In this document: piece after piece, positions 657-53,443 of the stretch | Position numbering within the stretch: the first letter of the stretch is position 1 | Layout: the number at the start of each line of letters is the position of its first letter | Assembly (NCBI GenBank): GCA_964650515.1 | Contig: CAZYUB010000007.1 | Coordinates: 20,837 to 84,836 of the forward strand | Origin: an uncultured Planctomycetia bacterium | GTDB lineage: Bacteria > Omnitrophota > Gorgyraeia > Pluralincolimonadales > Pluralincolimonadaceae | Length of the DNA stretch: 64,000 nucleotides | Reading direction: 5' to 3' | The notes under the pieces: generated by a model | The model's database searches: none | Told to the model about the DNA's origin: nothing | What the model saw: the letters and a program-made list of their open reading frames with translations, nothing else | Translations under genes and position numbers: made by a program

Positions 657-683
657 GAGGGTGTCCCCTTAGAGGATGGCTCC
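657..683 (+). repeat. REP-like element copy (GAGGGTGTCCCCttaGAGGATGGCTCC); supplies the ATG of the downstream radical SAM gene
   Basis: 24/27 identity to GAGGGTGTCCCCCCGGAGGATGGCTCC at 53296-53323 and to the inverted pair at 41579-41639. An in-frame TAG at 670-672 is followed by ATG 676 inside the repeat. Confidence 0.6.
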
Positions 684-2169
684 TAAAAACTTCGCGTTTT
701 GCAATGAATGCAGACAGATAGTCCCCGCGACGCATGTCGAGCGAGACAACAAGGTATATCTCTCCAAGGAATGCCCGAAATGCGGGAAGACGGAATATCT
801 CGTATCCTCGGACGCGTCGCTTTATAACAAGAAGCGCGCTTTTATGCAGGAAGCGGTGGTATCGTCGGGCTGCGGGCTCTTATGCCCGAACTGCGCCTCC
901 CACAAGAAGCCCGACATAATCTTCATAGACGTCACTAACCGCTGCAATATGAACTGCCTCATCTGCCTGAACAACCTCGCCACGATGGGCTACAAGTTCG
1001 AGCCCCGCATGGAATACTTCGACAAGATATTCAAGCATTATTCGACGTACGAGACGAAGCCATACGTGCAGCTCTTCGGCGGCGAGCCGACGATGCGCGC
1101 GGACCTCTTCGACATAATAAAGCTCGGTAAGTCATACGGCCTTTCCATGCGCGTCATAACGAACGGCCTGAAGCTTGCGGATAAGAAATACTGTGACGAC
1201 CTCATGGAACTCGGCGTGATGATACACATAGCGTTCGACGGGCTCAACAAGGCGATGTACGAGAAACTCCGCGGCCGCGCCGACGCGCTCGATTTGAAAC
1301 TCAAGGCGCTCGAGAACCTCGCGGCGCGCAAGAGGGGCAAGGTCATACTGATGACCGTCGTCGACAAGGAGCAGAACGCTTCGGACATGGCCGAATTTTT
1401 CAGGTTCAGCCAGCAGAACCTGCATGTCGTGCGCGGGATATACTTTATGCCCTTGATACATACCTGGGACAAGAAGGTCCTTGATTATAACCCCGAGCGA
1501 ACCACGCTCGAGGACGTCGAGTATATGGTCAACGCGACGATAGAGGGAGGCAACGTCGAGTTCGTCCCGCTCGGCTCGTTATCCCTGAAGAACCTCTACA
1601 GGGCGCTCGGAATAAGGAACATGCCTTTCGTCGGCGTCCACCCGAACTGCGAGAGCATAACATACCTCGTCTCCGACGGCGCGAAGTTCGTCTCGGCGTC
1701 GAAATTCCTGAAGACGACACTCTACCGCTTTATAGGTGACCTGCGCGGGCTCGAGATAAAGATATCGAAAAAATACGCGGCCGGGAAAAAACCCGGGTTC
1801 ATCGGCAAAGCCTGCATATGCATGGGAGTCCTAGGTATAGCGGCGAAACACGTCAACTTCGGCGCGCTTGTCGGGGCCAAGGGTATTGACGCATACGGGA
1901 AGTGGCTCGGGATATTCGGGAAGATAATTATTGGCAGGAAGGCGAAGGATGTTTTGCGCGATGATACGCTTATAAAAGGCGCCCTTCAAATACTTATCCT
2001 GCCGCTCGAGGACCTCAAGACCGCCGAGGCCGAACGGCTCGTGATGTGCTCGTCATGCTTCGCCTATGTCGATCCGGACACCGACGAGATAAAGACACTT
2101 CCTACCTGCACGTGGGACAACTACAAGAAACCCATAATGAAGAAAGTCGCGGAGAAGTTCAATGTTTGA
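676..2169 (+). CDS. Radical SAM enzyme with N-terminal CxxC...CxxC zinc-ribbon/rubredoxin-like domain (possible Tes/GDGT-MAS-like tetraether synthase family)
   Basis: CNECRQ..CPKCGK N-terminus; CNMNCLIC = Cx3Cx2C; GGEPT SAM-binding motif; C-terminal Cys cluster. Family assignment beyond radical SAM is inference. Confidence 0.8.
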   Translation: MAPKNFAFCNECRQIVPATHVERDNKVYLSKECPKCGKTEYLVSSDASLYNKKRAFMQEAVVSSGCGLLCPNCASHKKPDIIFIDVTNRCNMNCLICLNNLATMGYKFEPRMEYFDKIFKHYSTYETKPYVQLFGGEPTMRADLFDIIKLGKSYGLSMRVITNGLKLADKKYCDDLMELGVMIHIAFDGLNKAMYEKLRGRADALDLKLKALENLAARKRGKVILMTVVDKEQNASDMAEFFRFSQQNLHVVRGIYFMPLIHTWDKKVLDYNPERTTLEDVEYMVNATIEGGNVEFVPLGSLSLKNLYRALGIRNMPFVGVHPNCESITYLVSDGAKFVSASKFLKTTLYRFIGDLRGLEIKISKKYAAGKKPGFIGKACICMGVLGIAAKHVNFGALVGAKGIDAYGKWLGIFGKIIIGRKAKDVLRDDTLIKGALQILILPLEDLKTAEAERLVMCSSCFAYVDPDTDEIKTLPTCTWDNYKKPIMKKVAEKFNV

Positions 2170-3628
2170 TAGGCAGGTCAAGACGATATGCCCCGCATGC
2201 AACAGGGACCTCGATGGCCGCTACTACGAGGAAGGCGGCAAGATCCTGCTCGAGAAGAAATGCAGCGAGCATGGCAAGGTAGTCGACCTCGTATCGTCCG
2301 ACGCGGAGCTTTTCAAGGAACGCCTCAGCTTATTCGACCATATCAAGGACTACGGCTGCGATATCCCGAAGTGCCGCGAAGGCATCTTCAAGTGCGCTGT
2401 CCACCACATGCGCAAATCCCCGATAACCTTTATAGAGATAACGACGCGCTGCAACATGAAGTGCCCGGTCTGCTACGCGGACGCGGACGCGACCGGAAAA
2501 GACGTCCCCTTCGAGGATGTCTGCCGTATGCTCGAGGCGATAGCGAAGGAGGATAAGGAGACGCATCTCGTGCTGACCGGCGGCGAGCCGACGATACACC
2601 CGGACTTTTTCAGGATAGTCAAGAAGGCCGAGGAGCTCGGCCTGCTGCGCAGGACGTTCATTGCGACGAACTGCATAACGATCGCCGACAGGGATTTCTG
2701 CAAGAAGGTATTCGACGCGGGCATCAGGAAATTCTATTTCGGTTTCGACGGCACCGACCCCGAGGCGTGCCGCAAGCTTCGTGGGAGCCTGGCCGCGTAT
2801 GAATCGGTGCGCAAGGCGCTCAAGAACATCCGCGAGCTCGGCAAGGCGTGGATAATCCTCTCGTTCACCGCGTCGAAACAGCTGAACCTCGATAATATCC
2901 CGGAAGCGATAAAGTTCGCGATGGATAACCAGGATATCGTCAAGCGGCTCATGATAACGACAGAGTGCTTCTCCGGCAGGATAACCGACGTAAACGACCT
3001 CGTCAACAAGCGCCTGACCGGCGACTGCGTCGAGGACTTCATCTGTAAGAAGATAGGCGCGCGGACGGTCACATTCCCGCTCGCGGCGTTCTATATATTA
3101 TTGAAACCCCTGAAATTCGCGAAGCTGATAGATGCCGACAAATGGGTGACATCTACTTTCAGCCCGATGTGCGGCCAGATGGGGATGGTGATCTCACAGG
3201 ACGGCGAATTGAAGTCGATGATAGACCTCGTTGTCAGGGACCCGCGCAAAAATATCTACAAATGCGGCCGCGAGATAGACATGCTCGCCAACAAAATGGA
3301 AAAAGCGCCGTGGATCGTGAATCATTTGTTCTATCTTCCGCTGTATTTCATAAAGTTGCTCTCTTACGTCAACGGAAGTTTCCTCCGGAAGGCGCTCGCG
3401 GTATCCATAAAGAGCGGATTCAACTCGAAGAGGATAAAGAAGGCGCTGCTCGGAGAAAAAAGAGTGGAGCTATACTATCTTTTGGGTTCCGACAAATATA
3501 ATTTCATCTGGGACAGGATGCCGCACTGTGCGACCCACCATTACCGCATTCACCCGACGACAAAACAGGTCATAAAGGTCCCCGGTTGCCTCGTCTTCGC
3601 GTTCAGGGAAGAGCTGAAAAATTATTGA
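2162..3628 (+). CDS. Radical SAM enzyme, tandem paralog of the upstream gene (zinc ribbon + Cx3Cx2C)
   Basis: CPACNRD..CSEHGK ribbon; TTRCNMKCPVC; LTGGEPT. Start overlaps the stop of the previous gene by 8 nt. Confidence 0.8.
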   Translation: MFDRQVKTICPACNRDLDGRYYEEGGKILLEKKCSEHGKVVDLVSSDAELFKERLSLFDHIKDYGCDIPKCREGIFKCAVHHMRKSPITFIEITTRCNMKCPVCYADADATGKDVPFEDVCRMLEAIAKEDKETHLVLTGGEPTIHPDFFRIVKKAEELGLLRRTFIATNCITIADRDFCKKVFDAGIRKFYFGFDGTDPEACRKLRGSLAAYESVRKALKNIRELGKAWIILSFTASKQLNLDNIPEAIKFAMDNQDIVKRLMITTECFSGRITDVNDLVNKRLTGDCVEDFICKKIGARTVTFPLAAFYILLKPLKFAKLIDADKWVTSTFSPMCGQMGMVISQDGELKSMIDLVVRDPRKNIYKCGREIDMLANKMEKAPWIVNHLFYLPLYFIKLLSYVNGSFLRKALAVSIKSGFNSKRIKKALLGEKRVELYYLLGSDKYNFIWDRMPHCATHHYRIHPTTKQVIKVPGCLVFAFREELKNY

Positions 3629-3692
3629 TTGACTTAATCTTTATTTAGGCATAGAATCGTTCCGTTGAACTCATAAAAGGATATAATACGTA

Positions 3693-5360
3693 ATGTCTTA
3701 TATAGTCTTCGCACGCAAATGGCGGCCGAAAGACTTCGACAGCGTCCTTGGTCAAGAGCACGTCACGACCACCCTCAGGAACGCGATCGCGAATAACAGA
3801 GTCGCCCATGCGTACATTTTTTCCGGCCCGCGCGGTGTAGGCAAGACCACTACAGCACGCATCTTCGCAATGGCCCTCAACTGCAAAGAAAACAGCGGAA
3901 AGGGCCCGAGCGGGTTGCGCCACCCCTGTGGCGCGTGTGACTCGTGCAAAGAGATCTCCGCGGGCACCAACCTCGATGTCATCGAGATAGACGGCGCCTC
4001 GAACCGCGGCATCGACGAGGTCCGCTCCCTCCGTGAGAACATAAAGTTCGCCCCCACCCGCGGGAAATACAAGGTATATATAATAGACGAAGTCCATATG
4101 CTCACCGAGGAGGCGTTCAACGCGCTGCTCAAGACCCTCGAGGAGCCGCCGGCCCACGCGATATTCATATTCGCCACGACGAGGCCGTATAAAGTGCCGT
4201 CAACGATAATCTCGCGCTGCCAGCGCTTCGATTTCAAGCGGCTGACCGTCAACGAGATAGCCGGGAAGCTGCGCGATATAGCCAAGAGCGAAAAACTCGA
4301 TATAGAGGAAGAGGCGCTTTATACCATAGCCCGCGCGGCCGAGGGCGCTATGCGCGACGCGGAGTCGATGCTAGACCAGCTCGTCTCTTTCTGCGGCAAG
4401 AAGATAGATGTTGAGAGCGCGGCGTCGGTATCGGGTACGGTCGGGCAGGAAGTCCTCTTCGGGTTCACCGAAAAAGTGATAAGCAAAGACACCCCGGGCA
4501 TATTAAAGCTCGTAGACGGCATGATAAGCGGCGGCAAGGACATACCCCAGTTCATAAATTCGCTCGTTACGCATTTCAGGAACCTGCTGATAACGAGGAC
4601 CGCCGAAGCCGGCGACCTCACGGGGCTCATAGACCTTCCGAAAGAGATGATATCCAGGTTATCCGAGCAGGCGAAGCCGTTCACGAACGAGACGCTCCTC
4701 TATATATTGACGGTGCTGATGAACGCGCAGGACGAAGTCCGCCGCGCGATATCGCAGAGGATACCGCTCGAGCTGGCCGCGATACGGCTCACGCGCCGCG
4801 ACGACATAATGTCGCTGACGACGATACTCGGCCGCATAGAAAAACTCGAGAAGAAACTTAGCGGCGCAGATGCTCCCGAGAAACATGAATCAAAACCCGC
4901 CAAAGCCGAGGTAAAAGAAAACAATATAGAGGTCGATATAGAAATCGTGCCGGCGGCCGCCGTAAGCAAAGCCCTTTCGTTCGAATTGATATGCGAGACA
5001 TGGCCGGACCTGCTGCGCGGCATATTATCGAAGAAGATGTCGGTGGCGCTATTCCTCCAGCCGGCCCAGCCGCTCAGGCTCGACGACAGGATACTCACGA
5101 TAGCTTTCGCGAAAGAGCACAAGTTCAACAAGGAAGCGCTCGAGAGCAACGGCAACAGGAAGATAATAGAGAACGCGCTGAATGATATATTGAAGCACGA
5201 GATAAAAGTGGACATGAAAGTGGTCGAGGCCCTAGAGAAGAAGGTATCGGTAGAGGACCTGCTGCAGGAAGAGCATGAAGAAGAAGCCCACGAAGTGGTA
5301 AGATCCGCCCTCGAGATATTCGGCGGCAATCTCAAGAAGACCGACAACGCATCCTACTAG
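3693..5360 (+). CDS. dnaX: DNA polymerase III subunit gamma/tau
   Basis: N-terminal RKWRPKDFDSVLGQEHV, Walker A GPRGVGKTT, zinc module CGACDSC, and typical domains III-V. Confidence 0.95.
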   Translation: MSYIVFARKWRPKDFDSVLGQEHVTTTLRNAIANNRVAHAYIFSGPRGVGKTTTARIFAMALNCKENSGKGPSGLRHPCGACDSCKEISAGTNLDVIEIDGASNRGIDEVRSLRENIKFAPTRGKYKVYIIDEVHMLTEEAFNALLKTLEEPPAHAIFIFATTRPYKVPSTIISRCQRFDFKRLTVNEIAGKLRDIAKSEKLDIEEEALYTIARAAEGAMRDAESMLDQLVSFCGKKIDVESAASVSGTVGQEVLFGFTEKVISKDTPGILKLVDGMISGGKDIPQFINSLVTHFRNLLITRTAEAGDLTGLIDLPKEMISRLSEQAKPFTNETLLYILTVLMNAQDEVRRAISQRIPLELAAIRLTRRDDIMSLTTILGRIEKLEKKLSGADAPEKHESKPAKAEVKENNIEVDIEIVPAAAVSKALSFELICETWPDLLRGILSKKMSVALFLQPAQPLRLDDRILTIAFAKEHKFNKEALESNGNRKIIENALNDILKHEIKVDMKVVEALEKKVSVEDLLQEEHEEEAHEVVRSALEIFGGNLKKTDNASY

Positions 5361-5372
5361 AAGGTAATACGC

Positions 5373-5975
5373 ATGCCCGGCTACACAAGGACAATGGAGA
5401 AGCTCATAGCGGAGTTCACGAAGCTTCCCGGCATCGGGCCGAAATCAGCCGAGCGCATAGTGATGCATATCCTGAAATCCCCGCGCGAACACGCCGCGTC
5501 ACTTTCCGAATCGATAATCAAGCTCAAGGACACGATAGGTTTCTGCAAAAACTGCTTCAACCTCAGCGAAGGCGAGGTCTGCCACATCTGCTCCGACCCG
5601 CAGAGGGACAAGACGACGGTCCTCGTGGTCGAAAGCCCGAAGGATATACTCGCAATAGAGAAGACGGGCTCCTACAGGGGGCTCTACCACGTCCTGCTGG
5701 GCTCGATATCGCCCCTGGACGGCGTAGGGCCGGACGAGCTCAAGATAAAGGAGCTCCTGCGCAGGATCAAGGCCGACAAGATAAAGGAAGTGATACTGGC
5801 CACCGACGCGGATACCGAAGGCGAGACGACAGCCCTGTATTTATCGCAACTCCTTAAAAGCCAAAGCGTTAAGACAAGCCGCATAGCTTACGGCCTGCCC
5901 GTCGGCTCCCACCTCGAATACGCCGACCAGGCGACCCTTTCGAGGGCCCTCGAAGGCCGGAATCAAATTTCTTGA
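5373..5975 (+). CDS. recR: Recombination protein RecR
   Basis: HhH motif LPGIGPKSAERI, C4 zinc finger CKNCFNLSEGEVCHIC, Toprim region. No ybaB lies between dnaX and recR. Confidence 0.95.
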   Translation: MPGYTRTMEKLIAEFTKLPGIGPKSAERIVMHILKSPREHAASLSESIIKLKDTIGFCKNCFNLSEGEVCHICSDPQRDKTTVLVVESPKDILAIEKTGSYRGLYHVLLGSISPLDGVGPDELKIKELLRRIKADKIKEVILATDADTEGETTALYLSQLLKSQSVKTSRIAYGLPVGSHLEYADQATLSRALEGRNQIS

Positions 5976-6000
5976 CACAACGGCCCTCCTCTGGTAAAAT
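5972..6000 (+). promoter_or_regulatory. Consensus sigma70-like promoter TTGACA-17-TAAAAT
   Basis: Perfect -35 hexamer overlapping the recR stop, a 17-nt spacer, and TAAAAT at 5995-6000. Lies upstream of the TTG-start membrane gene at 6042. Confidence 0.55.
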
Positions 6001-6041
6001 TTAACCCAATACCTACCGTTTTTATCCTGTAAGGAGGCCTT

Positions 6042-6842
6042 TTGAAGGTCACAAGGGCGGTCGGCCAGGGTTTTTCCGCTACCCATAAGGGATGGCCAAT
6101 TATAGCGGTAATTTTTGTCTTTTACGCGGTCATAAGGTTCTTTTCCGCCCCGAACGAAGAGATACCTCCTTACCTTAAGAGTTTGGGCGACTGGGGCATT
6201 GCCGCGCTGATATTCCTGGCCATGTGCTTGGGCATCAATTATATCATCGCGGGCGTCCAGGCATACGCAAGGGACGGGATAAAAGACGGGCGGTACGGTT
6301 TCAAAGGGTTCTTTCGCAACTGCAACAGGTATTTTTTCGTACAGCTTGGCATCAGTTTCCTGCTCAGCATCCCCATGTGGACTATCGCGTTTCTCGCGGT
6401 ATTCCTGCTCGGGGGCGCTATGTCGGTCGCGGATAAGTACCTGTTCACCGCGGCCGTGCTCGGGGTATCGGCGGCGGTCCTGTCGATGGTCCTCGCGGTG
6501 ATCTTCGCGCTCGCTTCGGAATCATGGTCAATAGCGGCCGCTGACAGCAGGGGGATAGTCAGGTCGATAGGCAGGAGCTTCGCGTTCTGCGGACAGAGGT
6601 TCTTCAGCGTCATCGGGCTGCTCATGCTGATATGCGTGTCATGGCTGCTGATATCGCTGGTTGTATGGATAGCTTACGCGTTCATTTTACAGGGCTTCAG
6701 GTACCTGGGCCTTGAAGGTTACGGGTTTATTTTACGTGAGGTCACGGGATGCGCGCTTTACGCGTATTTCATCCTTTTCACGGCCTCGTCGTTGATGGCG
6801 TATTATTTAAACAACAGGAAGGAAGATGAAAGGCATAACTGA
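6042..6842 (+). CDS. Polytopic membrane protein, hypothetical (TTG start after GGAGG)
   Basis: About 6 predicted TM helices; no recognisable motif. Confidence 0.5.
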   Translation: MKVTRAVGQGFSATHKGWPIIAVIFVFYAVIRFFSAPNEEIPPYLKSLGDWGIAALIFLAMCLGINYIIAGVQAYARDGIKDGRYGFKGFFRNCNRYFFVQLGISFLLSIPMWTIAFLAVFLLGGAMSVADKYLFTAAVLGVSAAVLSMVLAVIFALASESWSIAAADSRGIVRSIGRSFAFCGQRFFSVIGLLMLICVSWLLISLVVWIAYAFILQGFRYLGLEGYGFILREVTGCALYAYFILFTASSLMAYYLNNRKEDERHN

Positions 6843-7398: not shown

Positions 7399-7399
7399 A

Positions 7400-9812: not shown

Positions 9813-9838
9813 CATCGTTCTTTAGATAGAGTTTCCGC

Positions 9839-9914
9839 TCCCCTGTAGCTCAGTCGGTAGAGCAGTGGACTGTTAATCCACGTGTCCCTGGTTCGAGCCC
9901 AGGCGGGGGAGCCA
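9839..9914 (+). tRNA. tRNA-Asn (anticodon GTT), 76 nt, CCA encoded
   Basis: Hand-folded cloverleaf: acceptor TCCCCTG/CGGGGGA, D arm GCTC-AGTCGGTA-GAGC, anticodon stem GTGGA/TCCAC with loop CTGTTAA, T arm CCTGG-TTCGAGC-CCAGG. Confidence 0.9.
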
Positions 9915-9948
9915 GATTTTTCCTTTATTAGTAGCAGGAAAAATCTGG
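9912..9948 (+). repeat. Perfect 13-bp inverted repeat (CCAGATTTTTCCT ... AGGAAAAATCTGG) that includes the tRNA CCA end
   Basis: 13/13 complementary arms with an 11-nt loop; no U-run follows. Candidate processing or attachment structure at the tRNA 3' end. Confidence 0.5.
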
Positions 9949-10054
9949 CGTGTCCCCTGCGTATTGATTTACGAAGCAAATCAGCAGCGGGATAGCCAAA
10001 TAATGAGTATTGAATTCCGTGTTATTTATGGCATATTTATAGCAGAAAAAGGTA

Positions 10055-10163: not shown

Positions 10164-10775
10164 ATGAAGCGAGTTGCTGTTTTTGTCGACGGTTTTAATC
10201 TCTACCATGCTTTGAACGAAAACGCCGCCTATCGAAAATACAAATGGTTAAATCTTGAAAAATTCTCAAAGTGTTTCGTCACCAAAAATGAAACAATAGT
10301 TGATATTTTATATTTTACATCTTATGTAACATGGGATGCCCAAAAGCTTGCAAGACACCAGATTTATGTGAAGGCGTTACAATTGGTTAACGTGAAGCCA
10401 GTATTCGGTGCTTTTAGAATGAAGGATGCAACTTGTCGCGTATGCCACGAAACATATAAGATACCGGAAGAAAAACAAACAGATGTTAATATTGCAATAA
10501 AACTATTCGAAACAGCAGTTAAGGATATATGGGATACGGCTTTAATCATATCAGGTGATAGCGACTTGATTCCTGCAATAGAGGCCATTAAAAAATTATT
10601 TCCCATCAAAAGAATAGGTGTTGCAATACCTATAGGAAGAAGCGCCGAAGAGTTAAAAAAAGTAGCAGATTTCCGGATAAAAATAAAACCAATACATCTT
10701 CAAACATGTCAATTTGACGACGTTATCATTATCGATAAGGATACTCAGTTAAAACGACCCGATACATGGATATGA
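10164..10775 (+). CDS. NYN-domain (LabA-like, PIN-fold) protein
   Basis: VAVFVDGFNLYHAL N-terminus and a GDSDLIPAI acidic cluster. About 35% GC, immediately downstream of tRNA-Asn. Confidence 0.75.
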   Translation: MKRVAVFVDGFNLYHALNENAAYRKYKWLNLEKFSKCFVTKNETIVDILYFTSYVTWDAQKLARHQIYVKALQLVNVKPVFGAFRMKDATCRVCHETYKIPEEKQTDVNIAIKLFETAVKDIWDTALIISGDSDLIPAIEAIKKLFPIKRIGVAIPIGRSAEELKKVADFRIKIKPIHLQTCQFDDVIIIDKDTQLKRPDTWI

Positions 10776-40975: not shown

Positions 40976-41554
40976 ATGGGAAAATCACTGAAGGGCACGC
41001 AGACGGAGAAGAATTTGTTGGCCGCATTCGCGGGAGAATCACAGGCGCGGAACAGGTATACATATTTCGCGAGCGCCGCCAAGAAGGAAGGGTTCGAGCA
41101 GATATCCGCGTTATTCCTCGAGACCGCCGAGAACGAGAAAGAGCACGCTAAGGTATTCTTCAAGTACCTCGAGGGAGGCGATGTCGAGATAACGGCGTCA
41201 TACCCGGCCGGCATTATCAGGGACACGAAAGCGAACCTTGAGCACGCCGCTGCCGGCGAGAACCTTGAATGGACGACGCTCTACGCCGATTTCGGCAAGA
41301 CGGCCGCCAATGAAGGGTTCCCCGAGGTCGCGCGCTCCTTTGAGCAGATAGCCAAAGTCGAGAAATTCCATGAGGCGAGATACAGGAAGCTCGCCGGCAA
41401 TATAGCCAACGGCGAGGTCTTCAAGAAGAAGGCGCCGGTCAAATGGCACTGCAGGAATTGCGGTTACGTATTCGAAGGGCCCGAAGCCCCGAAGGAATGC
41501 CCGGCCTGCAAGCACCCGCAGCCGTATTACGAAGTCCTGGCCGAAAACCTCTAA
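40976..41554 (+). CDS. rbr: Rubrerythrin
   Basis: Diiron EXXH motifs and C-terminal rubredoxin-like CRNCGY..CPACKHP. Confidence 0.92.
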
Positions 41555-41560
41555 AAATTC

Positions 41561-41668
41561 AGGAGCCATAAAAATTCAGGAGCCATCCTCCGGGGGGACA
41601 CCCATCTCAATGCAGCATGTCCCCCCGGAGGATGGCTCCTAGCTTTTTTTGGCTCCTAGCTTTTTTGA
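41561..41668. repeat. REP doublet (REPIN): inverted pair of the unit AAAAA-N3-AGGAGCCATCCTCCGGGGGGACAC with flanking partial direct duplications, between convergent genes
   Basis: Arms 41579-41601 and 41618-41639 are 22/22 complementary. aaaattcaggagccat x2 on the left and ggctcctagctttttt x2 on the right. Confidence 0.75.
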
Positions 41669-42652
41669 GAGGGAGCCGGCTGCGCAGGGGTCGAACATGA
41701 GCTCGTCATTGCGGAGTATCTCGGGGATGCCGCCTTTATTGCTCGCGAGGCAAGGGATCCCGAGCGCGAGCGCCTCGAGGAGGGCGAGCGGGCAATCGTC
41801 ATGTAGGGAAGGCAGGACGAAGAGGCCTGCCGACTTAACGATATCAAGCCGGTCTTCCCTCGCGCCGGCGAATATTACGCTGCCGCTTATCCCGAGCGAT
41901 ACCGCGAGTTCCTTGAGGCGGGCCATCTCACTGCCGTCTCCCACCAGTATGAGGTACCCTCCGGGAACGGAAGCCGCGCAAAACTCCCTCAATAAGAAAT
42001 CCACATTCTTCCTCGGTATCAAAGAACCGCAATACGTGATGACAAAGCTTCCTTTCGGGATTCCGAATTCCTTCCAAAGGTCGATTATCTTTGCGTTGTC
42101 GATATCATCCTGAGCCGGGCGGTTCGGGGATATGCCGATATCCTTTTTAAATCCGTAGTATTTGCGCGCCCTTTGCGCGAGGTCTTTTGATACGGCGAGT
42201 ACGCTCACCGCGCAGCGTATGCCGACAAAACCGTATAACCTTAGGGCCAGCGCGACAGGAGGAGAGAGGCGCCTGCTCCTGATAAGATGTTCCATGCTTC
42301 CTTCCATCAAAAGGGTGGTCTTCGCTCCGCAGAGGATGGCAGCGGGAGCGCAGAGCGCGGCGAATTCCTCGTTGTATACGACGAAGTGTTTTATCCCGTG
42401 TCTCACCGCTATGAAAAATATAAATAAAGGGCTCAGCGCGTAAAATACAGCGTAGAATAAAAGCTCGTTCCCGCAATAGAAGGGGAATTTGTGGAAGGTG
42501 ATCCCGCGGCGCTCTTCGCCGAAGAATGGCTTTGACGAAAGATAATGCGCCTCGACGCCTTTATCGGCAGCCGCTTTTACGGCAAGGGAGAGCTGGCGGA
42601 AGCATCCGCCCTGTTTCGGGTAAGGGTATAGTGTGAATATCGCTGGTTTCAT
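41639..42652 (-). CDS. Glycosyltransferase family 1/4
   Basis: GT-B C-terminal motifs (E-x7-E-like region, GIPCLASNKGGIPEIL). The last 6 codons are read through the REP flank. Confidence 0.7.
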   Translation of the reverse strand: MKPAIFTLYPYPKQGGCFRQLSLAVKAAADKGVEAHYLSSKPFFGEERRGITFHKFPFYCGNELLFYAVFYALSPLFIFFIAVRHGIKHFVVYNEEFAALCAPAAILCGAKTTLLMEGSMEHLIRSRRLSPPVALALRLYGFVGIRCAVSVLAVSKDLAQRARKYYGFKKDIGISPNRPAQDDIDNAKIIDLWKEFGIPKGSFVITYCGSLIPRKNVDFLLREFCAASVPGGYLILVGDGSEMARLKELAVSLGISGSVIFAGAREDRLDIVKSAGLFVLPSLHDDCPLALLEALALGIPCLASNKGGIPEILRNDELMFDPCAAGSLSKKLGAKKS

Positions 42653-45002: not shown

Positions 45003-45005
45003 TTT

Positions 45006-46358: not shown

Positions 46359-48457
46359 CTTATCCGTATCCTGTTATAGTATCTGTTCAGCGGGCTGTCA
46401 ATGTATTTCGTATTGTTCCAGACCATGTCCGCGTGGACGAGCGAATACGCCCCGGCTTCGATCCCCGACACGAACCTCGACGGGTCCCAGATCCCGAGCA
46501 TCCATAACCGGTCCATTATGTACGGTTCGAAGACCGGGCCCTTGCCGGCGATTATGGCTACGGAGGCGTCTTCGGCCATTACGTATTTATCGGTGCCTTC
46601 GGCGGCCCGCATTGCTTTATCTTTCGTCGTTTTTTCCGCCGCGAAATAATCTCCCGGGAACGCCGGGATATCCTTCCAGAAGAACGGGTTAGACCCGGGC
46701 ACCGGCAGGTTCATTAACGCGAAGATGCACAGGAGCGCGCCCACGGCCGCTTTCCTGCCTTTTGTGAGGCCGGCAACGGAAATGAGCGAACCGGACAGCA
46801 GAAGCAGCCATATATACGCCTCGATGAAATAATTCGTGTCGGAGCCGACCCTGGAACCCGCGACGAGGATATAGGCCATCGAGGCCGCGAGGCCGGCCGA
46901 CAGGAAGGCGGCCCTTATCCTTTCCGCCGGCGGCATGCCGCGTAAGCGAAAACATATCATTACGGCTATTAATAAGGGCCATGTTTCCGAAATGAAACGC
47001 TTCAGTAGCGCGATCCCGAGGCCCGGATCCAACTCGGTAAATTTCAGCATAATCCCGAAGGCCTGGGACGCGAATTGCCCCGCGGTCGCGGCCTGCCATA
47101 CGGAGAACATCGCCGCGGTCAATGCCGCGAACAAAAGGGCCGCCTTCAGCGCGGGCCGCCCGGTGTAAGCCCAATACGCGAACAGTACCGCGGCCGGTAC
47201 GGCTATCATCGATTTCGTGAAGAACGCCAGGCAAAGCAGGGCGGAGGACGCGGCCATTTTAGGCGCGCCGGCCCCGTTTTCGAGCCCTATATAAAGGGCG
47301 AGGCAGATGAAGAACGTCTCAAGCATATCCACGCGGTAGAGGTTCCCCCAGTAGGCGACCGCGTTTATAGAAAGGAATAAGAGGAAGAATACCGCCGCCC
47401 AGGGCCGCCCGCCGCACCGTTTCGAGGCATTCATCCCCAACAATACGGCGATGCCGCATGCCGAGAGCAGGCTTATGATGCGGCCGGCTTCCAGGCCGAG
47501 GCCGGATAACTTATGCACCCATCCCGCGGCGATATAGAAGACCGGCGCGTACGCCGTCGGCCAGTACGGCCATTGGTTATGATCGGGATAGTACCCGAGC
47601 GACTGCGACCAGAAGTTGGACGCCCACATCGCGCCCTCGACGATATTTATCGAATACGGGTAGCGCGAGGCCGCCAGGGAATAGTAAATGAAATACGCGA
47701 GGTTCAGCAGGAGCAGAAGGATGAGCGCCGTATGCCCGGGAGGAAGGGCCCTTCCCGCGATGCCGATAAGCCCCGCGAGGTTCCTGATATCCGACCTAAT
47801 TAGCGACGCCTTCGAGCCGGGAGTATACGACCATTCGATCGGGACTTCCTTAATATCCATTCCCGCGCGCCGCGCCTCATACAGGATCTCCGCGTCTATA
47901 AGGGAGCCGCTTGACCCGCACAACGGCATTATTTCCCTGAGCCGCGCTGTCCTGAAAACCTTGAGGCCGCAGAACGGGTCCGTTACGGGAAGGCCGGTGA
48001 AAGATCTCACTGCGCCCGCCGCGAGCGCGCTGTTTATCCTTCTCGATAAAGGGGCGGGGGATGTTATCTTCGAGCCCGGCATCCTCCTCGAGCCGGCGAC
48101 GATATCATGGCCTTGCGCGAGCTTCAGGAGCTTCTCCGTTTCCTCCGGGCAGACTGAGCCGTCGATATCCGCGAAAGCCATAAGCGGGGCCGTTACGCTC
48201 TTCAGGGCTTCGGCGAGCGCGCGGCCTTTGCCCTTCTGCGGTATTTCTATGTACCTGATGTTCGCTGAATCCCGCGCAATGCCCTCCAGGACGTCCGCGG
48301 TCCCGTCGGTGCTGCCGTTTACGACGACGAGTATCGAATATTCCCCGCGCCCGTAGCGTTCCGCGAAATACCTGTCGTATCTCTCGACCGTGCGGTATTC
48401 CGGGAGACGTTTCGCCTCGTTGTAAGCCGGGAAGACGATCTCGAATTTAGGCGCCAT
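46355..48457 (-). CDS. Fusion of a GT2 polyprenyl-phosphate sugar synthase-like domain with a 12-TM GT-C-like membrane domain
   Basis: N-terminal GT-A motifs (NEA, DGT, ADIDGS), then about 450 aa polytopic. Confidence 0.65.
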   Translation of the reverse strand: MAPKFEIVFPAYNEAKRLPEYRTVERYDRYFAERYGRGEYSILVVVNGSTDGTADVLEGIARDSANIRYIEIPQKGKGRALAEALKSVTAPLMAFADIDGSVCPEETEKLLKLAQGHDIVAGSRRMPGSKITSPAPLSRRINSALAAGAVRSFTGLPVTDPFCGLKVFRTARLREIMPLCGSSGSLIDAEILYEARRAGMDIKEVPIEWSYTPGSKASLIRSDIRNLAGLIGIAGRALPPGHTALILLLLLNLAYFIYYSLAASRYPYSINIVEGAMWASNFWSQSLGYYPDHNQWPYWPTAYAPVFYIAAGWVHKLSGLGLEAGRIISLLSACGIAVLLGMNASKRCGGRPWAAVFFLLFLSINAVAYWGNLYRVDMLETFFICLALYIGLENGAGAPKMAASSALLCLAFFTKSMIAVPAAVLFAYWAYTGRPALKAALLFAALTAAMFSVWQAATAGQFASQAFGIMLKFTELDPGLGIALLKRFISETWPLLIAVMICFRLRGMPPAERIRAAFLSAGLAASMAYILVAGSRVGSDTNYFIEAYIWLLLLSGSLISVAGLTKGRKAAVGALLCIFALMNLPVPGSNPFFWKDIPAFPGDYFAAEKTTKDKAMRAAEGTDKYVMAEDASVAIIAGKGPVFEPYIMDRLWMLGIWDPSRFVSGIEAGAYSLVHADMVWNNTKYIDSPLNRYYNRIRIR

Positions 48458-49097
48458 CGCTCGTTATCCTTCCGCCCTCCATCACGATAGTGCGGCCGCA
48501 TATCTTTTTTATGCTCCCGGTGTCGTTTGACACGAAGAATATCGTCTTGCCGGCCCTTTTCAGTTCGGAGAGTTTCTTGAAACACTGTTCCTGGAAACCG
48601 GTATCGCCGACAGCGAGGACCTCGTCTATAAGCAAAATACCGCCGTCAATATGGACAGCGACGGAGAAGGATACCCTGGATATCATGCCATGGGAGAGCT
48701 TGAGCACCTGCGCGTCGACCATCTCGCGTACGCCGGCGAAATCCACGATATCATCGAAGATCTTCTTCGCGTTCTTCCTCTTAATGCCGAATACGGCGGA
48801 AAGAAGGTATATGTTCTCCTTGACGCTCAGGTTGAAATTCAACGCGCCCTCGACCCTTATGAGCGGCACGACCCTGCCGTTTACCGCGGCCTTTCCGGAC
48901 GTCGGTTCCGTGATTCCGGCGATGAGCCGCATAAGCGTCGTCTTGCCGGAGCCGTTGGGCCCGGTGACGCCCACCGATTCGCCGCGGTCCACGGAAAAGG
49001 AGACGTCTTTCAGCGCCCAGAGGTAGTCATTCCTGCTGAAGTAATATTCGCCCTTATGGAACCTCTTGCTGACATTCCTGAATTCTACGGTTTTCAT
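48447..49097 (-). CDS. ABC transporter ATP-binding protein (Wzt/TagH-like polysaccharide export)
   Basis: Walker A GPNGSGKTT, signature LSHGM, Walker B LIDE. Confidence 0.85.
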   Translation of the reverse strand: MKTVEFRNVSKRFHKGEYYFSRNDYLWALKDVSFSVDRGESVGVTGPNGSGKTTLMRLIAGITEPTSGKAAVNGRVVPLIRVEGALNFNLSVKENIYLLSAVFGIKRKNAKKIFDDIVDFAGVREMVDAQVLKLSHGMISRVSFSVAVHIDGGILLIDEVLAVGDTGFQEQCFKKLSELKRAGKTIFFVSNDTGSIKKICGRTIVMEGGRITSDGA

Positions 49098-49933
49098 GGC
49101 GCTAGTATGTCCGCTATGTTCTTTTCGCTTGCTTTGAATATATAGTACCCGGCAACGAAGACCGTTATTGATATCACCGAAGCTATCGTGATGGAAAGCA
49201 GGTCCGGCGCGCAGTTATGCAACAGCGCCTTCCTGTAGCCGTCGAGGATCCCGGCCATCGGGTTAAGGAAATAATACGGCAGCAGCGCCTTGTCGACCAT
49301 GCCGACCGGGTATCCGACGGGCGAGGCGAGCATCCAGACCTGGAGCAGTATGGGCATCGCGCTTTGTATGTCGCGGAAATAGACGTTCAACACCGAGACG
49401 ATAAGGCACACGCCTATCGTGAACATCAAATGCACCGCAAATACCGGGACCACGTACAGGGCGTTTATCCCCACCGGATAGCCGTAAAGCGCGAATACCG
49501 CCGCAAGCAGCGCGGAAGATACCATGAAGTCCGCGAGCGTCGCGAGCACGGAGCCGAGCGGCACGGTTATCTTGGGGAAGTTGATCCTCGTTATCAGGTT
49601 GAAATTGGAGTTGAGGCAGTTGACCGCGAAACCCACCGAGGACGAGAAGAATATCCACGGGACTATCGCGGTGAAAGCGAAGACCGGATACGGCGCGCCT
49701 TCCGACTGCACGCCAGCGACCTTCGAGAATACGACGGTGAACACCGCCATCGTCATCAGCGGGTTGATTACGGCCCACGCGGCCCTGAGGTACCTTTGCT
49801 TGTACCTTTGCTTGAGGTTGACGAGGCCGAAGGCGATTATGAGCTCGTGCCAGTTCCTGATGCTTGATAAGAGAGAAAATGGGTTAGGCATTTTGATGTA
49901 ATTCATTATATTACAAATATATGCGGGGTTCAA
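49094..49933 (-). CDS. ABC-2 type transporter permease (Wzm/TagG-like)
   Basis: 6 TM segments; ABC-2 family pattern. Confidence 0.8.
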   Translation of the reverse strand: MNPAYICNIMNYIKMPNPFSLLSSIRNWHELIIAFGLVNLKQRYKQRYLRAAWAVINPLMTMAVFTVVFSKVAGVQSEGAPYPVFAFTAIVPWIFFSSSVGFAVNCLNSNFNLITRINFPKITVPLGSVLATLADFMVSSALLAAVFALYGYPVGINALYVVPVFAVHLMFTIGVCLIVSVLNVYFRDIQSAMPILLQVWMLASPVGYPVGMVDKALLPYYFLNPMAGILDGYRKALLHNCAPDLLSITIASVISITVFVAGYYIFKASEKNIADILAP

Positions 49934-49965
49934 TAGGGCTTGAAACGGCCGGCCTCAGGCAGGAG

Positions 49966-50748
49966 TCAGAACTTATAGCAGCTCTTTAACTGGAAGTACT
50001 GCCCCTTAGGCGCGTTCTCGGTATGGGTGTCGTAGAGGTACGTGAAAGAGAAGCTCATCCCCCTTATCCGCGTGTAGATATCCCCCCCGACGGAAAACGT
50101 CCTGCGCCCGCTGTTCTTTATCTTGACGCCGTCGCGCCTCTGCTCGCTGCTCATCATCCAGTTTACGGAAGGGCCCATCTTGAGGTTTTTTGCGACGTTA
50201 TACCCGAGGAGATACTGGAGATGGAGCTCATCGCCCGGCGCGATATCCTTGTCGTTCTCGAGCCGGAAATAGTATTTTGCCGCGGCGTCCATGCTGAAAT
50301 CATTTATCGTCTTACTGAAGAATACGACGGGCCTTATGTCGACCTGGTGCGTGCCGTAATTCGTGCTCTTGTCCGAGGCGTATTCGCCGGTAGGCATCTT
50401 TACAAACAGCATAGGCAGGACATCGACTTCCTTGATTGGCAGGAAGTAGCCCGCGCCGGCTGTAGCGTCGCCGAGGCCCCATGAACTCTTGTCCGTAGGA
50501 CGGACCCGTACGCCGCCCGCGGGAAGCAGGGCCGTCACGACGAAGTCCGGGGAATAATAACAGAATCGCAGCAGCTCCTCCGCTTTCAGGAGCTTGTCGG
50601 CCGCATAGACGGAGGAGTAGGTCAGGAAATAGAGGCCTTTCGGCGCACGGGCACCGTCATAGAAGTTTACGGCATGGGAGATATCTGGTATTATAATCAT
50701 CAGGGCGGCGGCGATTGCCGAAGCATAAGACAGGGCTTTAATGCGCAT
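49966..50748 (-). CDS. Outer membrane beta-barrel protein (MetA-pathway/transporter-like OMP family candidate)
   Basis: True start at ATG 50748 (MRIKALSYASAIAAALMII) with an AGGAGG ribosome-binding site. The track ORF is over-extended to 51189, across hemW. C-terminal aromatic residue F. Confidence 0.6.
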   Translation of the reverse strand: MRIKALSYASAIAAALMIIIPDISHAVNFYDGARAPKGLYFLTYSSVYAADKLLKAEELLRFCYYSPDFVVTALLPAGGVRVRPTDKSSWGLGDATAGAGYFLPIKEVDVLPMLFVKMPTGEYASDKSTNYGTHQVDIRPVVFFSKTINDFSMDAAAKYYFRLENDKDIAPGDELHLQYLLGYNVAKNLKMGPSVNWMMSSEQRRDGVKIKNSGRRTFSVGGDIYTRIRGMSFSFTYLYDTHTENAPKGQYFQLKSCYKF

Positions 50749-50802
50749 TGTAAACCTCCTGTATATTAAGTGGTTTACAATTATATAACAACCGGGTGAA
50801 AT

Positions 50803-51930
50803 ATGCAAAAGATATCGCTGTATATACACATCCCATTCTGCGCGAGGAAGTGCGCTTATTGCGATTTCTACAGCGTCGTGTATGATAAGTCCACCGCGGA
50901 TGCCTATATAGATGTCCTCTGCGCGCAAATAGGGAAGATAGACAGGCCGGTCTCGACGGTATTCATCGGCGGGGGGACGCCGACGGTGCTTGAGGTGCCG
51001 ATGATTAGGAAACTGCTGCGCTGCCTCGGGAAGCTTCCCGTGAGGGGCGCGGAGTTCACCGTTGAGGCGAACCCGGAGAGTTTGACCGCGGACAAGATAA
51101 ACCTGTTCCTCGACGAAGGCGTCAACCGGATCAGCATCGGCGTGCAGTCGTTCCGGGACGGCAAGCTCAGGAAGCTTGGCCGCATACATGATTCGAAGAA
51201 GGCAAGGAACGCTGTCCTCTCGGCGGCGAAGAAGGGATTCAGGAACATAAATGCGGACCTGATCTTTGGGGCCCCCGGCGAGGCATTCGAGGAATGCGCC
51301 GCGGAATTCGACGAGGCGGCGGGCCTGCCGTTAACGCACATATCGTGCTATTGCCTGTCGTATGAGAAGGGCACGCCGTTATACGAGGCGAAAAAGAAGG
51401 GCGATGTGGCACCGGTCGAAGATGAATACGCGGCGCAGATGTATTCCTACGCGATGGATTTTCTGCCTAAGAAAGGTTTCAGGCATTACGAGGTCTCGAA
51501 TTTCGCCAAGAAGGGGTATGCCTGCAGGCACAACATCAACTACTGGGAGAACAACGAATATATCGGCCTCGGAGCGTCGGCGGTCACCTATACCGGCGGC
51601 GACAGGATGAGGTACATCCCGGACGTAAAGGAGTATATGGAGAAGGCCTCTTCGGGCGGACGTGCGTTCGTTTCATCGGAGCACCTTATCGGCGAGCGCA
51701 AGGCGAGGGAGACCGCTGCAGTCAAGATCAGGACCGCGGAAGGGATAGATTTCCGCCGGTTCAGGGAGAAGACCGGTTGCGACCTTATGAAACTGGAATC
51801 CGCCGCCATACGCAAGCTCTGCGACGCGGGCCTTGTAAAATTCAGGATGTCCAAATGCAGGAAGGCGGGCATTGCGCTGACGAAGAAAGGGTTTCTTTTC
51901 TGCGACACGGTATCAAGCGAACTGTTGTAG
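50803..51930 (+). CDS. hemW: Radical SAM heme chaperone HemW (HemN-like oxygen-independent coproporphyrinogen oxidase family)
   Basis: LYIHIPFCARKCAYCDF motif. Confidence 0.9.
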   Translation: MQKISLYIHIPFCARKCAYCDFYSVVYDKSTADAYIDVLCAQIGKIDRPVSTVFIGGGTPTVLEVPMIRKLLRCLGKLPVRGAEFTVEANPESLTADKINLFLDEGVNRISIGVQSFRDGKLRKLGRIHDSKKARNAVLSAAKKGFRNINADLIFGAPGEAFEECAAEFDEAAGLPLTHISCYCLSYEKGTPLYEAKKKGDVAPVEDEYAAQMYSYAMDFLPKKGFRHYEVSNFAKKGYACRHNINYWENNEYIGLGASAVTYTGGDRMRYIPDVKEYMEKASSGGRAFVSSEHLIGERKARETAAVKIRTAEGIDFRRFREKTGCDLMKLESAAIRKLCDAGLVKFRMSKCRKAGIALTKKGFLFCDTVSSELL

Positions 51931-51935
51931 GGGCA

Positions 51936-51964
51936 TTGAATCTGCCCGGTTCCCATGGTATAAT
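51936..51964 (+). promoter_or_regulatory. Promoter TTGAAT-17-(TGG)TATAAT upstream of bioY
   Basis: Extended -10 TGGTATAAT at 51956-51964. Confidence 0.5.
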
Positions 51965-51994
51965 TGTAAACAATAAAAATAATGGAGGTAGACA

Positions 51995-52576
51995 ATGAAC
52001 ACGATAGCAATAAGCAGGAGCCGTTTCGCTGCGGAGAGGCTCGTACTGTCGTTCGTGATGGCGGGGATCGTTGCGCTTCTCGCGCAGATCAGGATACCGC
52101 TTCCGTGGACGCCCGTCCCGATAACCGGGTCTACGCTCGGCGCGATCTTCGCCGGTGTACTTCTCGGCGACGTCTGGGGCGGCGTCAGCATGTTGCTGTA
52201 CCTTACGCTCGGCGCGGCCGGGCTTCCGGTGTTTACGGGTTTTAAGGGCGGGCCGGAGGTATTCTACGGGCCGACCGCCGGATACCTGCTTGGTTATGTC
52301 GTGACAGCTTTTGCTATCGGGCATATAACGGACAATTACCCAAAGGCAAGGGGATTCCTGCCGCTGCTCGGAATAATGACGGCTTTCAGCGCGCTGATAT
52401 TACTGCTCGGGTCGGCATACCTGGGTGTCTGGCTTCGCGCCGTGACGGGCCGTGAAGCCGGGTTCACCGAACTGTTTACGATGGGTTTCCTGCCGTTCAT
52501 CCCGGGCGATATAATAAAATCGTTCGCAGCCGCCGCTATCGCGGGATTGATAACCCCCAAGGAGTCGTATAAGTAG
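51995..52576 (+). CDS. bioY: BioY family biotin transporter (ECF S-component)
   Basis: RIPLPWTPVPITGSTLGAIFAGVLLG motif. Confidence 0.9.
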   Translation: MNTIAISRSRFAAERLVLSFVMAGIVALLAQIRIPLPWTPVPITGSTLGAIFAGVLLGDVWGGVSMLLYLTLGAAGLPVFTGFKGGPEVFYGPTAGYLLGYVVTAFAIGHITDNYPKARGFLPLLGIMTAFSALILLLGSAYLGVWLRAVTGREAGFTELFTMGFLPFIPGDIIKSFAAAAIAGLITPKESYK

Positions 52577-52640
52577 CAAGCAAGGAGCCATCCTCCAGGG
52601 GGCTGCGAAGCGTCCCTCGCGCAAAATAATTTGAAAGAAA

Positions 52641-52686
52641 ATCACCTCCTTTTTCATCTATTAGGCATAGAGAAAAAGGAGGTTTT
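52641..52686 (+). promoter_or_regulatory. Stem-loop sequestering the ribosome-binding site of the transposase gene (CCTCCTTTTTC ... GAAAAAGGAGG)
   Basis: The right arm contains the GGAGG ribosome-binding site 6 nt before ATG 52689. IS200 is known to use an analogous structure. Confidence 0.5.
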
Positions 52687-52688
52687 TC

Positions 52689-53273
52689 ATGCCAAGAAAA
52701 CCCAGACATTTGGTTGATAACGGTTTTTATCATATCATGAGCAGGGGCCACAACAAGTGTGAGCTGTTTTATTCGCGAAAGGATTACGAGAAGTATAAGA
52801 ACTTAATCGTTGAATATAAACAAAAGTTTCCTTGCGATATCTACCACTATTGTTTTATGCCGAATCACGTCCATATTGTATTAAAAATAATACGCGGAGA
52901 TGATCTACCGGAACTCATGCAGCGGATTAATCAGGGTTATGCTCGGTATAACAAGAGACTGCGCGGAACAGTCGGAAATCTATTTCAGGGGAGATATAAG
53001 GGCCTTATCATCGAAACGGAGGGGTATTTACTGGAGTGCGGCAGATATATAGAAAGAAATCCATTAAAATCAGGATTAGAGAGCAACCTGCTGCGGTATC
53101 CTTTTTCCAGCTTCAGTTTCTATGTGAAAGGGGATAGAGATGAAATATTGACTCCAAACCCGCTGTATTTAGAGTTGTCCCGCTCCGAAGAGGAGAGGAG
53201 GAGGATTTATGCAGAGTATGTACTCAAGGAAAGGATGGAAGAGCATGTTAAGAGCATTAACTCAGGATCATAG
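52689..53273 (+). CDS. tnpA: IS200-like / REP-associated tyrosine transposase (HUH Y1)
   Basis: HUH motif PNHVHIV with upstream YHIMSRGH and catalytic Tyr region (RYIERNPLK). Confidence 0.85.
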   Translation: MPRKPRHLVDNGFYHIMSRGHNKCELFYSRKDYEKYKNLIVEYKQKFPCDIYHYCFMPNHVHIVLKIIRGDDLPELMQRINQGYARYNKRLRGTVGNLFQGRYKGLIIETEGYLLECGRYIERNPLKSGLESNLLRYPFSSFSFYVKGDRDEILTPNPLYLELSRSEEERRRIYAEYVLKERMEEHVKSINSGS

Positions 53274-53443
53274 CGCACCATTTAGGGGCAAGAGCTGAGG
53301 GTGTCCCCCCGGAGGATGGCTCCTTCGTATTTTTTTGTTGACAAGTTATTGTGATTATGATAACTATAATACAAAATATATAAATCATAAGAATGGCAGT
53401 TATGGTAATTACAATAACTCTGTGAGGGAAGAAGCTCTATAAT

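Follow-up and report, generated by a model that had tools for sequence, protein, structure and literature searches.

A probable TIRtron/TIRYT-type system in Candidatus Omnitrophota: a RAYT-like HUH/Y1 gene bracketed by inverted copies of a 27-nt repeat

Analysis of a 64-kb stretch of an uncultured Candidatus Omnitrophota genome (contig CAZYUB010000007.1; hereafter, the window) revealed a gene coding for a tyrosine transposase-like protein of the HUH/Y1 type, bracketed by two inverted copies of a 27-nt unit that also occurs in the window as one solo copy and one tight inverted doublet. We interpret this ensemble, with a probability of about three in four, as a system of the TIRtron/TIRYT type, which is RAYT-like (RAYT, REP-associated tyrosine transposase; REP, repetitive extragenic palindrome), and not as a canonical REP/RAYT system or an insertion sequence (IS) of the IS200 kind. 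TIRtrons, or TIRYTs, were described by Di Nocera, De Gregorio and Rocco in 2013 (PMC3733652) as RAYT-like genes whose flanks bear, in place of REPs, terminal inverted repeats (TIRs) sharing GGGGWSAS, and the TIR families are moderately abundant, as singles and dimers. They correspond to subclass 2.1 of the TnpA-Y1 proteins and to RAYT Group 1 of Bertels et al. 2017 (Quentin et al. 2018, PMC6006769). We found no literature report of RAYT or TIRYT elements in Omnitrophota.

The repeat unit, GAGGGTGTCCCCCCGGAGGATGGCTCC, was searched for with up to three mismatches, both in the window and in 100 shuffles of it. Four matches were obtained, namely, the solo unit, the two doublet arms and the right copy flanking the gene, compared with none in the shuffles. 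The fifth copy, at 52584-52604 on the minus strand, was recovered by the 13- and 21-nt cores of the 27-mer, which brings the total to five where none is expected. A profile built from 14 distinct units returned exactly these five, with no further match below E=0.01 in the 64 kb (Table 1). The original prediction had placed the repeat at these loci, and this held. The inverted pair that it saw around the Y1 gene is also real, with amended coordinates, the left copy being damaged and reaching to about 52618, and the right one beginning at 53297 instead of 53296. The indel that breaks the left copy measures 8-10 nt and is absent from all orthologous loci. For the source genome, copy number refers to these 64 kb, and all other counts come from related metagenome-assembled genomes (MAGs) and contigs. 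The exact 21-mer core is present in two Candidatus Omnitrophota MAGs, JBAZJG01 and JBAYMW01, and in contigs of their metagenomes. With five exact cores in one related MAG and two in another, the unit looks low-copy. Matches in sequences L007 (Longimicrobiales), L008 (Desulfobacteraceae) and L015 (related sequences are numbered here with an L, and proteins with a P) were set aside as chance, since they cover a 20-21-nt core only, without the GAGGGT part, in unrelated DNA.

Table 1. Repeat units, gene and associated features, numbered from the first nucleotide of the window
Feature	Position	Strand	Description
Solo unit	657-683	+	24/27 matches (3 mismatches)
Tes-like radical SAM gene	676-2169	+	Start codon and two additional residues from the unit
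Left junction tandem duplication	41553-41586	+	AAAAATTCAGGAGCCAT x2, 17 nt; second copy = the unit's outer 8 nt
Inverted doublet	41579-41639	.	Two units; perfect 22-bp hairpin stem
Doublet arm	41579-41605	-	2 mismatches
Doublet arm	41613-41639	+	3 mismatches
Right junction tandem duplication	41633-41666	+	TGGCTCCTAGCTTTTTT x2, 17 nt
Left flanking unit	52584-52618	-	Outer half GGAGCCATCCTCC intact; inner half broken by an indel
5' leader stem-loop	52637-52688	+	CCTCC (52645-52649) pairs with the Shine-Dalgarno GGAGG (52678-52682)
HUH/Y1 tyrosine transposase-like gene (RAYT-like, TIRYT type)	52689-53273	+	Intact open reading frame, 194 aa
Right flanking unit	53297-53323	+	Exact 27-mer (0 mismatches)
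Empty site	59107-59125	+	Histidine-kinase stop / response-regulator start junction

The HUH protein is nearer to TnpA-REP, that is to RAYTs, than to IS200 transposases. The sole Pfam domain in its 194 residues is Y1_Tnp (47.9 bits), a family that Pfam describes as 'Transposase IS200 like'. With NCBIfam, REP_Tyr_transpos (NF047646) scores 62.4 bits compared with 17.5 bits for IS200, and this RAYT model is the best NCBIfam match for all 26 family members sampled. The sole solved structure matched by sequence when the single protein is the query is 4ER8, the E. coli TnpA-REP (E=8e-5, 21% identity), and a search of the PDB with the family profile gives 5e-7 for 4ER8 versus 0.013-0.05 for the TnpA proteins of ISDra2 and IS608. 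The AlphaFold (AF2) model, with a pLDDT (predicted local distance difference test) of 88.6, finds 4ER8_A as its best Foldseek match (E=2.4e-10, template modelling score 0.74 on the target, 158 columns), while IS200-family structures stand at about 1e-5 (~7e-6). The HUH motif is H60-V-H62 and the catalytic Tyr is Y120, within GRYIERNP. These three residues, as well as N124 and P125, are invariant across the 26 family members and align to 4ER8, so that the Y motif reads Y-x-x-x-N-P. The label 'IS200-like transposase' was the weakest part of the original prediction. The NCBIfam, PDB profile and Foldseek results and the Y motif all favour RAYT; the prediction's proviso that the protein might cluster with ordinary IS200 was checked, and the protein groups with RAYT/TnpA-REP. 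The sequence further contains PNHVH, LFQGRY, YIERNP and FSSF/FSSY. The signature given for subclass 2.1 consists of NHVH or NH[YF]H, FQ or W[EQ], YIELNP or Y[IV]HLNP, and an SS tail (PMC6006769, Table 1). NHVH, FQ and SS are matched here, and YIERNP is one residue off YIELNP. Judged by motifs rather than by placement in a tree, the HUH protein would be a short form of the TIRYT class.

The unit itself is built of two direct 10-nt half-sites, GGGTGTCCCC and GGATGGCTCC, with a 5-nt spacer between them. Two direct copies of the half-site frame GG[GA]TG[GT]C[AC]CC are common to the lineages, and the spacer of about 5 nt varies in sequence among them while its length is nearly constant. This pattern suggests two sites contacted by a protein instead of a hairpin. 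Single 27-mers fold no better than shuffles (-4.0 and -4.9 kcal/mol, z -0.13 and -0.77), and no GTAG or CGTC tag is carried by the units of the window clade, which start with (N)GAGGGTG and end with GGCTCC. An inner end ...CCCTGTAG is confined to the distant L034 lineage, where it may point to a relation with GTAG-tagged REPs that the window clade does not show. In the L034 units (9875-9903, 10589-10617 and 3767-3791), the inner end ...GGGACACCCTGTAG reads GTAG on the complementary strand.

These properties bear on the rival that best survives, namely, a canonical REP/RAYT system (Group 2/3 of Bertels, 2.2/2.5 of Quentin), in which a palindromic REP is amplified to a high copy number by a single-copy RAYT as REPINs (REP doublets forming hairpins). 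A RAYT-like gene between inverted units, a hairpin doublet, extragenic sites and 4ER8 as the best structural match are all expected of such a system, and to this extent the REP/RAYT system of the original prediction was well seen, the elements being RAYT-like in kind with inverted flanks, solos and doublets. However, the unit is not a strict REP, as it neither folds singly nor bears a tag in this clade, and its copies in related MAGs are few. Moreover, the NHVH/FQ/YIERNP/SS series fits 2.1 and not 2.2 (DHLH/WE/YIHYNP) or 2.5, and the 62.4 bits lie under the curated RAYT cutoff, which together make the canonical system improbable.

Comparison with relatives indicates a gene that stays in place. 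Orthologous 194-aa genes (78-93% identity) lie between the same inverted 27-mers in L004/L021, L006/L025, L017 and L019, all at the BioY/MerR locus and with the same promoter-proximal flank as in the window (...TTGACAAGTTATTGTG), upstream of the MerR-like gene. More distant homologues (50-63% identity) have flanking units of their own on the frame GG[GA]TG[GT]C[AC]CC-N5-GGATGGCNCC, the lineage-specific inverted units being GGGTGTCCCTTTTCAGGATGGCCCC in L034, GGGTGGCACCTAGCAGGATGGCCCC in L026 and GGTGGCACCTTCTGGGATGGCACC in L036; L034 and L036 also hold additional solo copies of their own units. Over this series of five close and four distant lineages, the repeat diverges together with the protein: the unit sequence follows the lineage of the HUH protein and always brackets the gene in inverted orientation. 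About 500 homologues were found, nearly all of 194-196 aa, the named ones being labelled only 'transposase [Ca. Omnitrophota]'. An identical protein occurs elsewhere only on a 1.8-kb contig from JGI (Joint Genome Institute).

All 15 contigs that carry P0008 (63% identity) show one locus, and homologues with as little as 56% identity still lie next to the MerR-like gene and an ExeA-like ATPase/secretin cluster. With one copy per contig in 370 kb of related DNA, the HUH gene is apparently single-copy at a stable locus. It is under strong purifying selection, with a ratio of non-synonymous to synonymous divergence (dN/dS) of ~0.06 and a dS of 0.64-0.70 (window versus L019/L021), and this ratio together with the deep synonymous divergence argues for long vertical descent. 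Between the window and L025, synonymous sites are saturated; the right flanking 27-mer is nonetheless identical in the orthologous loci of L021 and L025, and such identity across lineages despite synonymous divergence argues that the units themselves are constrained. The MerR-like gene was considered as a split-off helix-turn-helix (HTH) partner of the HUH protein and rejected: it has its own promoter and a position beyond the inverted pair, and in L036 and L038 the two genes are no longer found together.

The gene is preceded by a leader whose predicted RNA fold (-28.7 kcal/mol, z -4.5) sequesters the Shine-Dalgarno sequence. The stem is kept in nine lineages, with compensatory changes at two of ten pairs, which suggests that it probably throttles translation of the HUH gene. 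A leader stem occluding the Shine-Dalgarno sequence is also reported for IS200. On the other side of the gene, the outer end of the right unit, with the following TTCG and T-run (53324-53336), is terminator-like and directly precedes the TTGACA in the promoter of the following gene; a terminator scan flagged only a small GGAGGA..TCCTTC stem, at this right flanking unit. Right after the T-run, 53337-53375 comprises TTGACA, a 21-nt spacer with the dyad GTTAT-N10-ATAAC, and TATAAT, upstream of the 89-aa MerR-like gene (53444-53713). This arrangement, kept in L017, L019, L025 and L026, looks like a MerR-style long-spacer promoter.

That leader is one of the features that an autonomous IS of the IS200/IS605 family would share, its terminal repeats then being the flanking units and the doublets and solos being deletion derivatives resembling miniature inverted-repeat transposable elements (MITEs). 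The name of the Pfam family fits this explanation too, and the arms of the doublet are oriented like the two units that flank the gene, which is expected of a derivative by internal deletion. The constancy of locus and neighbours down to 56% identity with one copy per contig, the dN/dS of ~0.06 with deep synonymous divergence, Y-x-x-x-N-P in place of Y-x-x-x-Q, and the far weaker scores of the IS200 model and PDB structures nevertheless speak against it; no tnpB-like reading frame adjoins the HUH gene and folding of the gene-flanking ends yields no subterminal hairpins. An IS of this family thus seems a poor candidate, slightly poorer even than the canonical REP/RAYT system.

The additional solo and doublet copies are found at gene boundaries and occasionally in frame within genes. 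The solo unit of the window illustrates the first situation, since it provides the beginning of a radical S-adenosylmethionine (SAM) gene. The ATG (676-678) lies within the unit, which also encodes codons 2-3 (GCT CC-, Ala-Pro), after an in-frame TAG at 670-672; in the window, no other start codon precedes the CxxC of the zinc ribbon, a Pfam domain that starts at residue 8. This bears out the Met-Ala-Pro start that the original prediction had read from the repeat. The comparison with orthologues that it called for shows the MAPK start to be lineage-specific: about forty orthologues begin with M-x-N-[YFH]-AFCN, and MAPKNF-AFCN is confined to the window and P0121 (93% identity). Upstream of P0121, in three independent assemblies (L009-L011), a more decayed copy of the unit is present with a 15-nt junction duplication. 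No unit is found at this start in L012 (88%) or L013 (68%), and L013 retains an ordinary GAGGA-N5-ATG start. The comparison supports the view that the unit supplied or replaced the 5' end of this gene, the MAP residues being lineage-specific, and the insertion appears to predate the split between the window and L009. The events may have comprised an insertion together with the loss of about 12 native bases.

Several observations concern the surroundings of this unit. It separates the radical SAM gene from a conserved non-coding element of about 55 nt further upstream (gtagttgtatttc..agggttcgc..cgtccacgactacccgccag; 586-656 in the window, ~2925-2990 in L013). This stretch resembles the 3' end of a tRNA-Ser(GCU) occupying the same position in L009 (2386-2479), and the cargo between tRNA and fragment is a methyltransferase in L013 and other DNA in the window. 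It may represent an att-like remnant of an integration hotspot; as a tRNA or known RNA it was rejected, ARAGORN and Rfam having returned nothing, permissive scan included. The radical SAM gene and the next one (2162-3628) are overlapping tandem paralogues with N-terminal zinc ribbons of the HMPTM type, conserved in Omnitrophota and relatives, and their best NCBIfam match is the tetraether lipid synthase Tes, with 200 bits, well below the cutoff of 450. In L002 (3386-3412; = L018), too, a unit lies at the 5' end of a radical SAM gene. This solo copy falls between a HydG-like stop and a HydE-like start and, according to where HydE truly begins, is either intergenic or contributes ...GAILRGDTLS... 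to the N-terminus of HydE.

The inverted doublet, which was also correctly predicted together with partial duplications on its flanks, belongs to a 52-nt inverted repeat (85%) at 41549-41669. It occupies the gap between two convergent genes, coding for a rubrerythrin (stop 41552-41554) and a glycosyltransferase (stop 41639-41641), the stop codon of the latter straddling the last base of the unit. Contrary to single units, doublets form strong hairpins (z -8.5 to -10.7); in the window the stem amounts to -29.1 kcal/mol as DNA (z -8.5), and the extended 131-nt palindrome, folded as RNA, to about -80 kcal/mol whichever strand is taken. On both strands the stem leads into T-runs, and the doublet is probably a bidirectional terminator. 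In the syntenic L023, the same doublet is found without the 17-nt duplications and the glycosyltransferase 3' end is ~85 nt longer, which argues that the window lineage rearranged DNA at the unit boundary; the right 17-nt duplication forms the present 3' end of the glycosyltransferase reading frame (...KKLGAKKS*). L006 was dismissed as an empty doublet site, because the DNA 3' of its rubrerythrin gene is unrelated and the comparison is not clean. Further doublets are present in L016, L022 and L023; in all, the sampled genomes and metagenomes of relatives showed three or four doublet loci. Downstream, the glycosyltransferase-rich region contains direct repeats of 291 nt (43489-43779/44628-44918) and 115 nt (42978-43092/44126-44240), with 71-74% identity and ~1140 nt apart, which are probably tandem paralogous genes.

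Tandem duplications at the outer junctions of units are not restricted to this doublet. Defined as 9-18 nt long, with at most one mismatch and starting within the last 2-10 nt of the unit's outer end, they were observed at 11 of 35 non-redundant outer junctions, in several lineages and independent assemblies, compared with 0.75% at random positions and 1.6% just past the stops of long reading frames (Fisher p=3e-12). In the window, both doublet arms are duplicated over 17 nt, each with its own, different flank, which excludes copying between the hairpin arms. Microhomology slippage was likewise rejected for the 17-nt duplications, the unit borders sharing no homology, and an assembly artefact is unlikely, as independent assemblies agree (L034/L035; L009/L010/L011). 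Junction duplications are not mentioned in PMC3733652 or PMC6006769, and this signature is new here, statistically strong and unexplained.

Orthologous sites with and without units give a further view of the behaviour of the repeat. The junction between a histidine-kinase stop and a response-regulator start is empty in the window and in L021 (...TAA|TATGCATAAG), while L025 has a solo unit there and, in L019, inner half-units form a palindrome at this place. Such filled and empty sites show gain or loss of units. Close to this junction, at ~59797-59830, the window is without a ~0.9-kb gene that is found 3' of the response regulator in L025 (8100-9050), L019 and L021; this gene holds a unit in its signal-peptide region, and a decayed unit (L025, 9024-9050) marks where the deletion ends on the right. 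Copies inside genes comprise one unit in a signal-peptide region in L019 and two in-frame units in an intact 1019-aa UvrD-like helicase in L005 (3484-6543; = L014). The helicase units, ...GSHAQGGHPSGP... (4262-4282) and ...MSLSPRRMAPAAPAAA... (4974-4994), are inverted and 712 nt apart, and the second has a 9-nt junction duplication encoding APAAPA. Both kinds of intragenic location have precedents among REPs; REPs in UvrD and repair genes, and repeats supplying stop codons, have already been described (PMC3733652).

Finally, that the 27-mer could be an immobile motif of the host, for instance a terminator or an operator of the MerR-like regulator unrelated to the HUH gene, is very improbable, for even if units abut gene ends, several with T-runs after them, if the doublet resembles a bidirectional terminator and if two direct half-sites are operator-like, the unit tracks the HUH lineage and brackets the gene even where the MerR neighbour is missing (L036, L038), close relatives differ in whether an orthologous site holds a unit, and copies lie in frame inside coding sequences.

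Several points nonetheless weigh against assigning the system to the TIRtron/TIRYT class with dispersal of its units. The NCBIfam score is below the curated cutoff of 80 for RAYTs (NF047646). Subclass 2.1 proteins have a median length of 238 aa, a C-terminal HTH-like domain (Bac_DnaA_C/HTH_23/HTH_28-like) and the entry 'REP: no' (PMC6006769), whereas the protein here has 194 aa and no recognisable distal HTH, none being found by the Pfam scan or in the AF2 model. In that model, the tail (residues 145-194) consists of a few short helices, and the 158 columns aligned already span the 165-aa 4ER8. The few exact cores in the related MAGs argue for weak dispersal, the left flanking unit in the window is damaged, some copies of the unit could be old and immobile, and the filled and empty patterns could fit deletions as well as insertions. 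As for the terminator role of the doublet, which is inferred from shape and position, the consensus terminator scan left the doublet unflagged, its loop exceeding the limit of the tool.

Under the TIRtron/TIRYT interpretation, we can propose the following scheme. A vertically inherited HUH/Y1 nuclease gene would be maintained between two inverted 27-nt recognition units. By homology to TnpA-REP and IS608 TnpA, the enzyme would bind these units and nick single-stranded DNA at or near the outer ...ATGGCTCC boundary via a 5'-phosphotyrosine link. Units, most plausibly in the form of the hairpin-forming doublet, might occasionally be copied or moved in trans to new sites, whereas the HUH gene itself would no longer be mobile. 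For the host, a unit would have taken the place of the radical SAM gene's start codon and ribosome-binding region and added Ala-Pro, and rearrangement at the doublet boundary would have re-made the 3' end of the glycosyltransferase gene. The junction tandem duplications may be nick-and-extend footprints, left by Y1 nicking, short strand-displacement synthesis and re-ligation, which is speculative.

A bolder idea, which we hold to be doubtful, is that TIRYT Y1 enzymes read a pair of direct 10-nt half-sites around a free 5-nt spacer and not a hairpin, unlike IS608 TnpA and the E. coli RAYT. If this were true, the 9-18-nt duplications would be in vivo footprints of a nick near ...GGAGG^ATGGCTCC, followed by strand-displacement synthesis and re-ligation. 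They would then offer a first mechanistic handle on a widespread Y1 subclass, and in the small genomes of Omnitrophota the enzyme would actively remodel the starts and ends of genes.

The finding does not overturn current understanding. It extends RAYT-like systems, in which a domesticated transposase is associated with a cognate repeat, to Candidatus Omnitrophota, a phylum that has not been cultivated and for which nearly all knowledge comes from MAGs, and it documents effects on the host: a start codon derived from the repeat, a re-made glycosyltransferase 3' end, in-frame copies in a helicase and a likely bidirectional terminator. Our literature search found no biochemical study of the TIRYT subclass, and the boundary-specific tandem duplications offer a clue to how these Y1 proteins act on DNA.

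With regard to known systems, the TnpA proteins of IS200/IS605 (IS608, ISDra2) share the HUH/Y1 fold and catalytic residues, but their Y motif ends in Q instead of NP, profile and fold scores are weaker, and the element described here is without their subterminal hairpins, tnpB or multicopy behaviour. Intragenic Rickettsia palindromic elements (RPEs) and REPs, the latter in uvrA, uvrB, UvrD and recB (PMC3733652, section 15), are similar in that units lie in frame and unit ends give stop or start codons. The difference is that a unit provides here the only usable start of a conserved enzyme gene, with a series of empty, filled and decayed orthologues. REPINs (Bertels & Rainey 2011, PMC3116915) resemble the doublets, being inverted pairs with a short spacer and a long hairpin, built from the same unit as flanks the RAYT-like gene; they occur, however, in tens to hundreds per genome, compared with the few doublet loci sampled here. 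The E. coli REPtron (TnpA-REP, 4ER8, with REPs and bacterial interspersed mosaic elements, BIMEs) offers the best sequence and fold match to the HUH protein, a gene bracketed by inverted copies of a dispersed repeat, and extragenic repeats near gene 3' ends, but E. coli REPs are GTAG-tagged imperfect palindromes in hundreds of copies, whereas the present unit is untagged, rare and does not fold alone. The closest likeness is to TIRtrons, which have in common with this system a RAYT-like Y1 gene between non-palindromic terminal inverted repeats, a modest number of TIR copies elsewhere, as singles and dimers, and the GGGGWSAS signature, which is fitted by GGGGACAC within the reverse complement of the unit, GGAGCCATCCTCCGGGGGGACACCCTC. 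Besides its short protein without a recognisable distal HTH, what sets the present system apart from the TIRtrons described is the resolution of its unit into two direct 10-nt half-sites and its host, Candidatus Omnitrophota.

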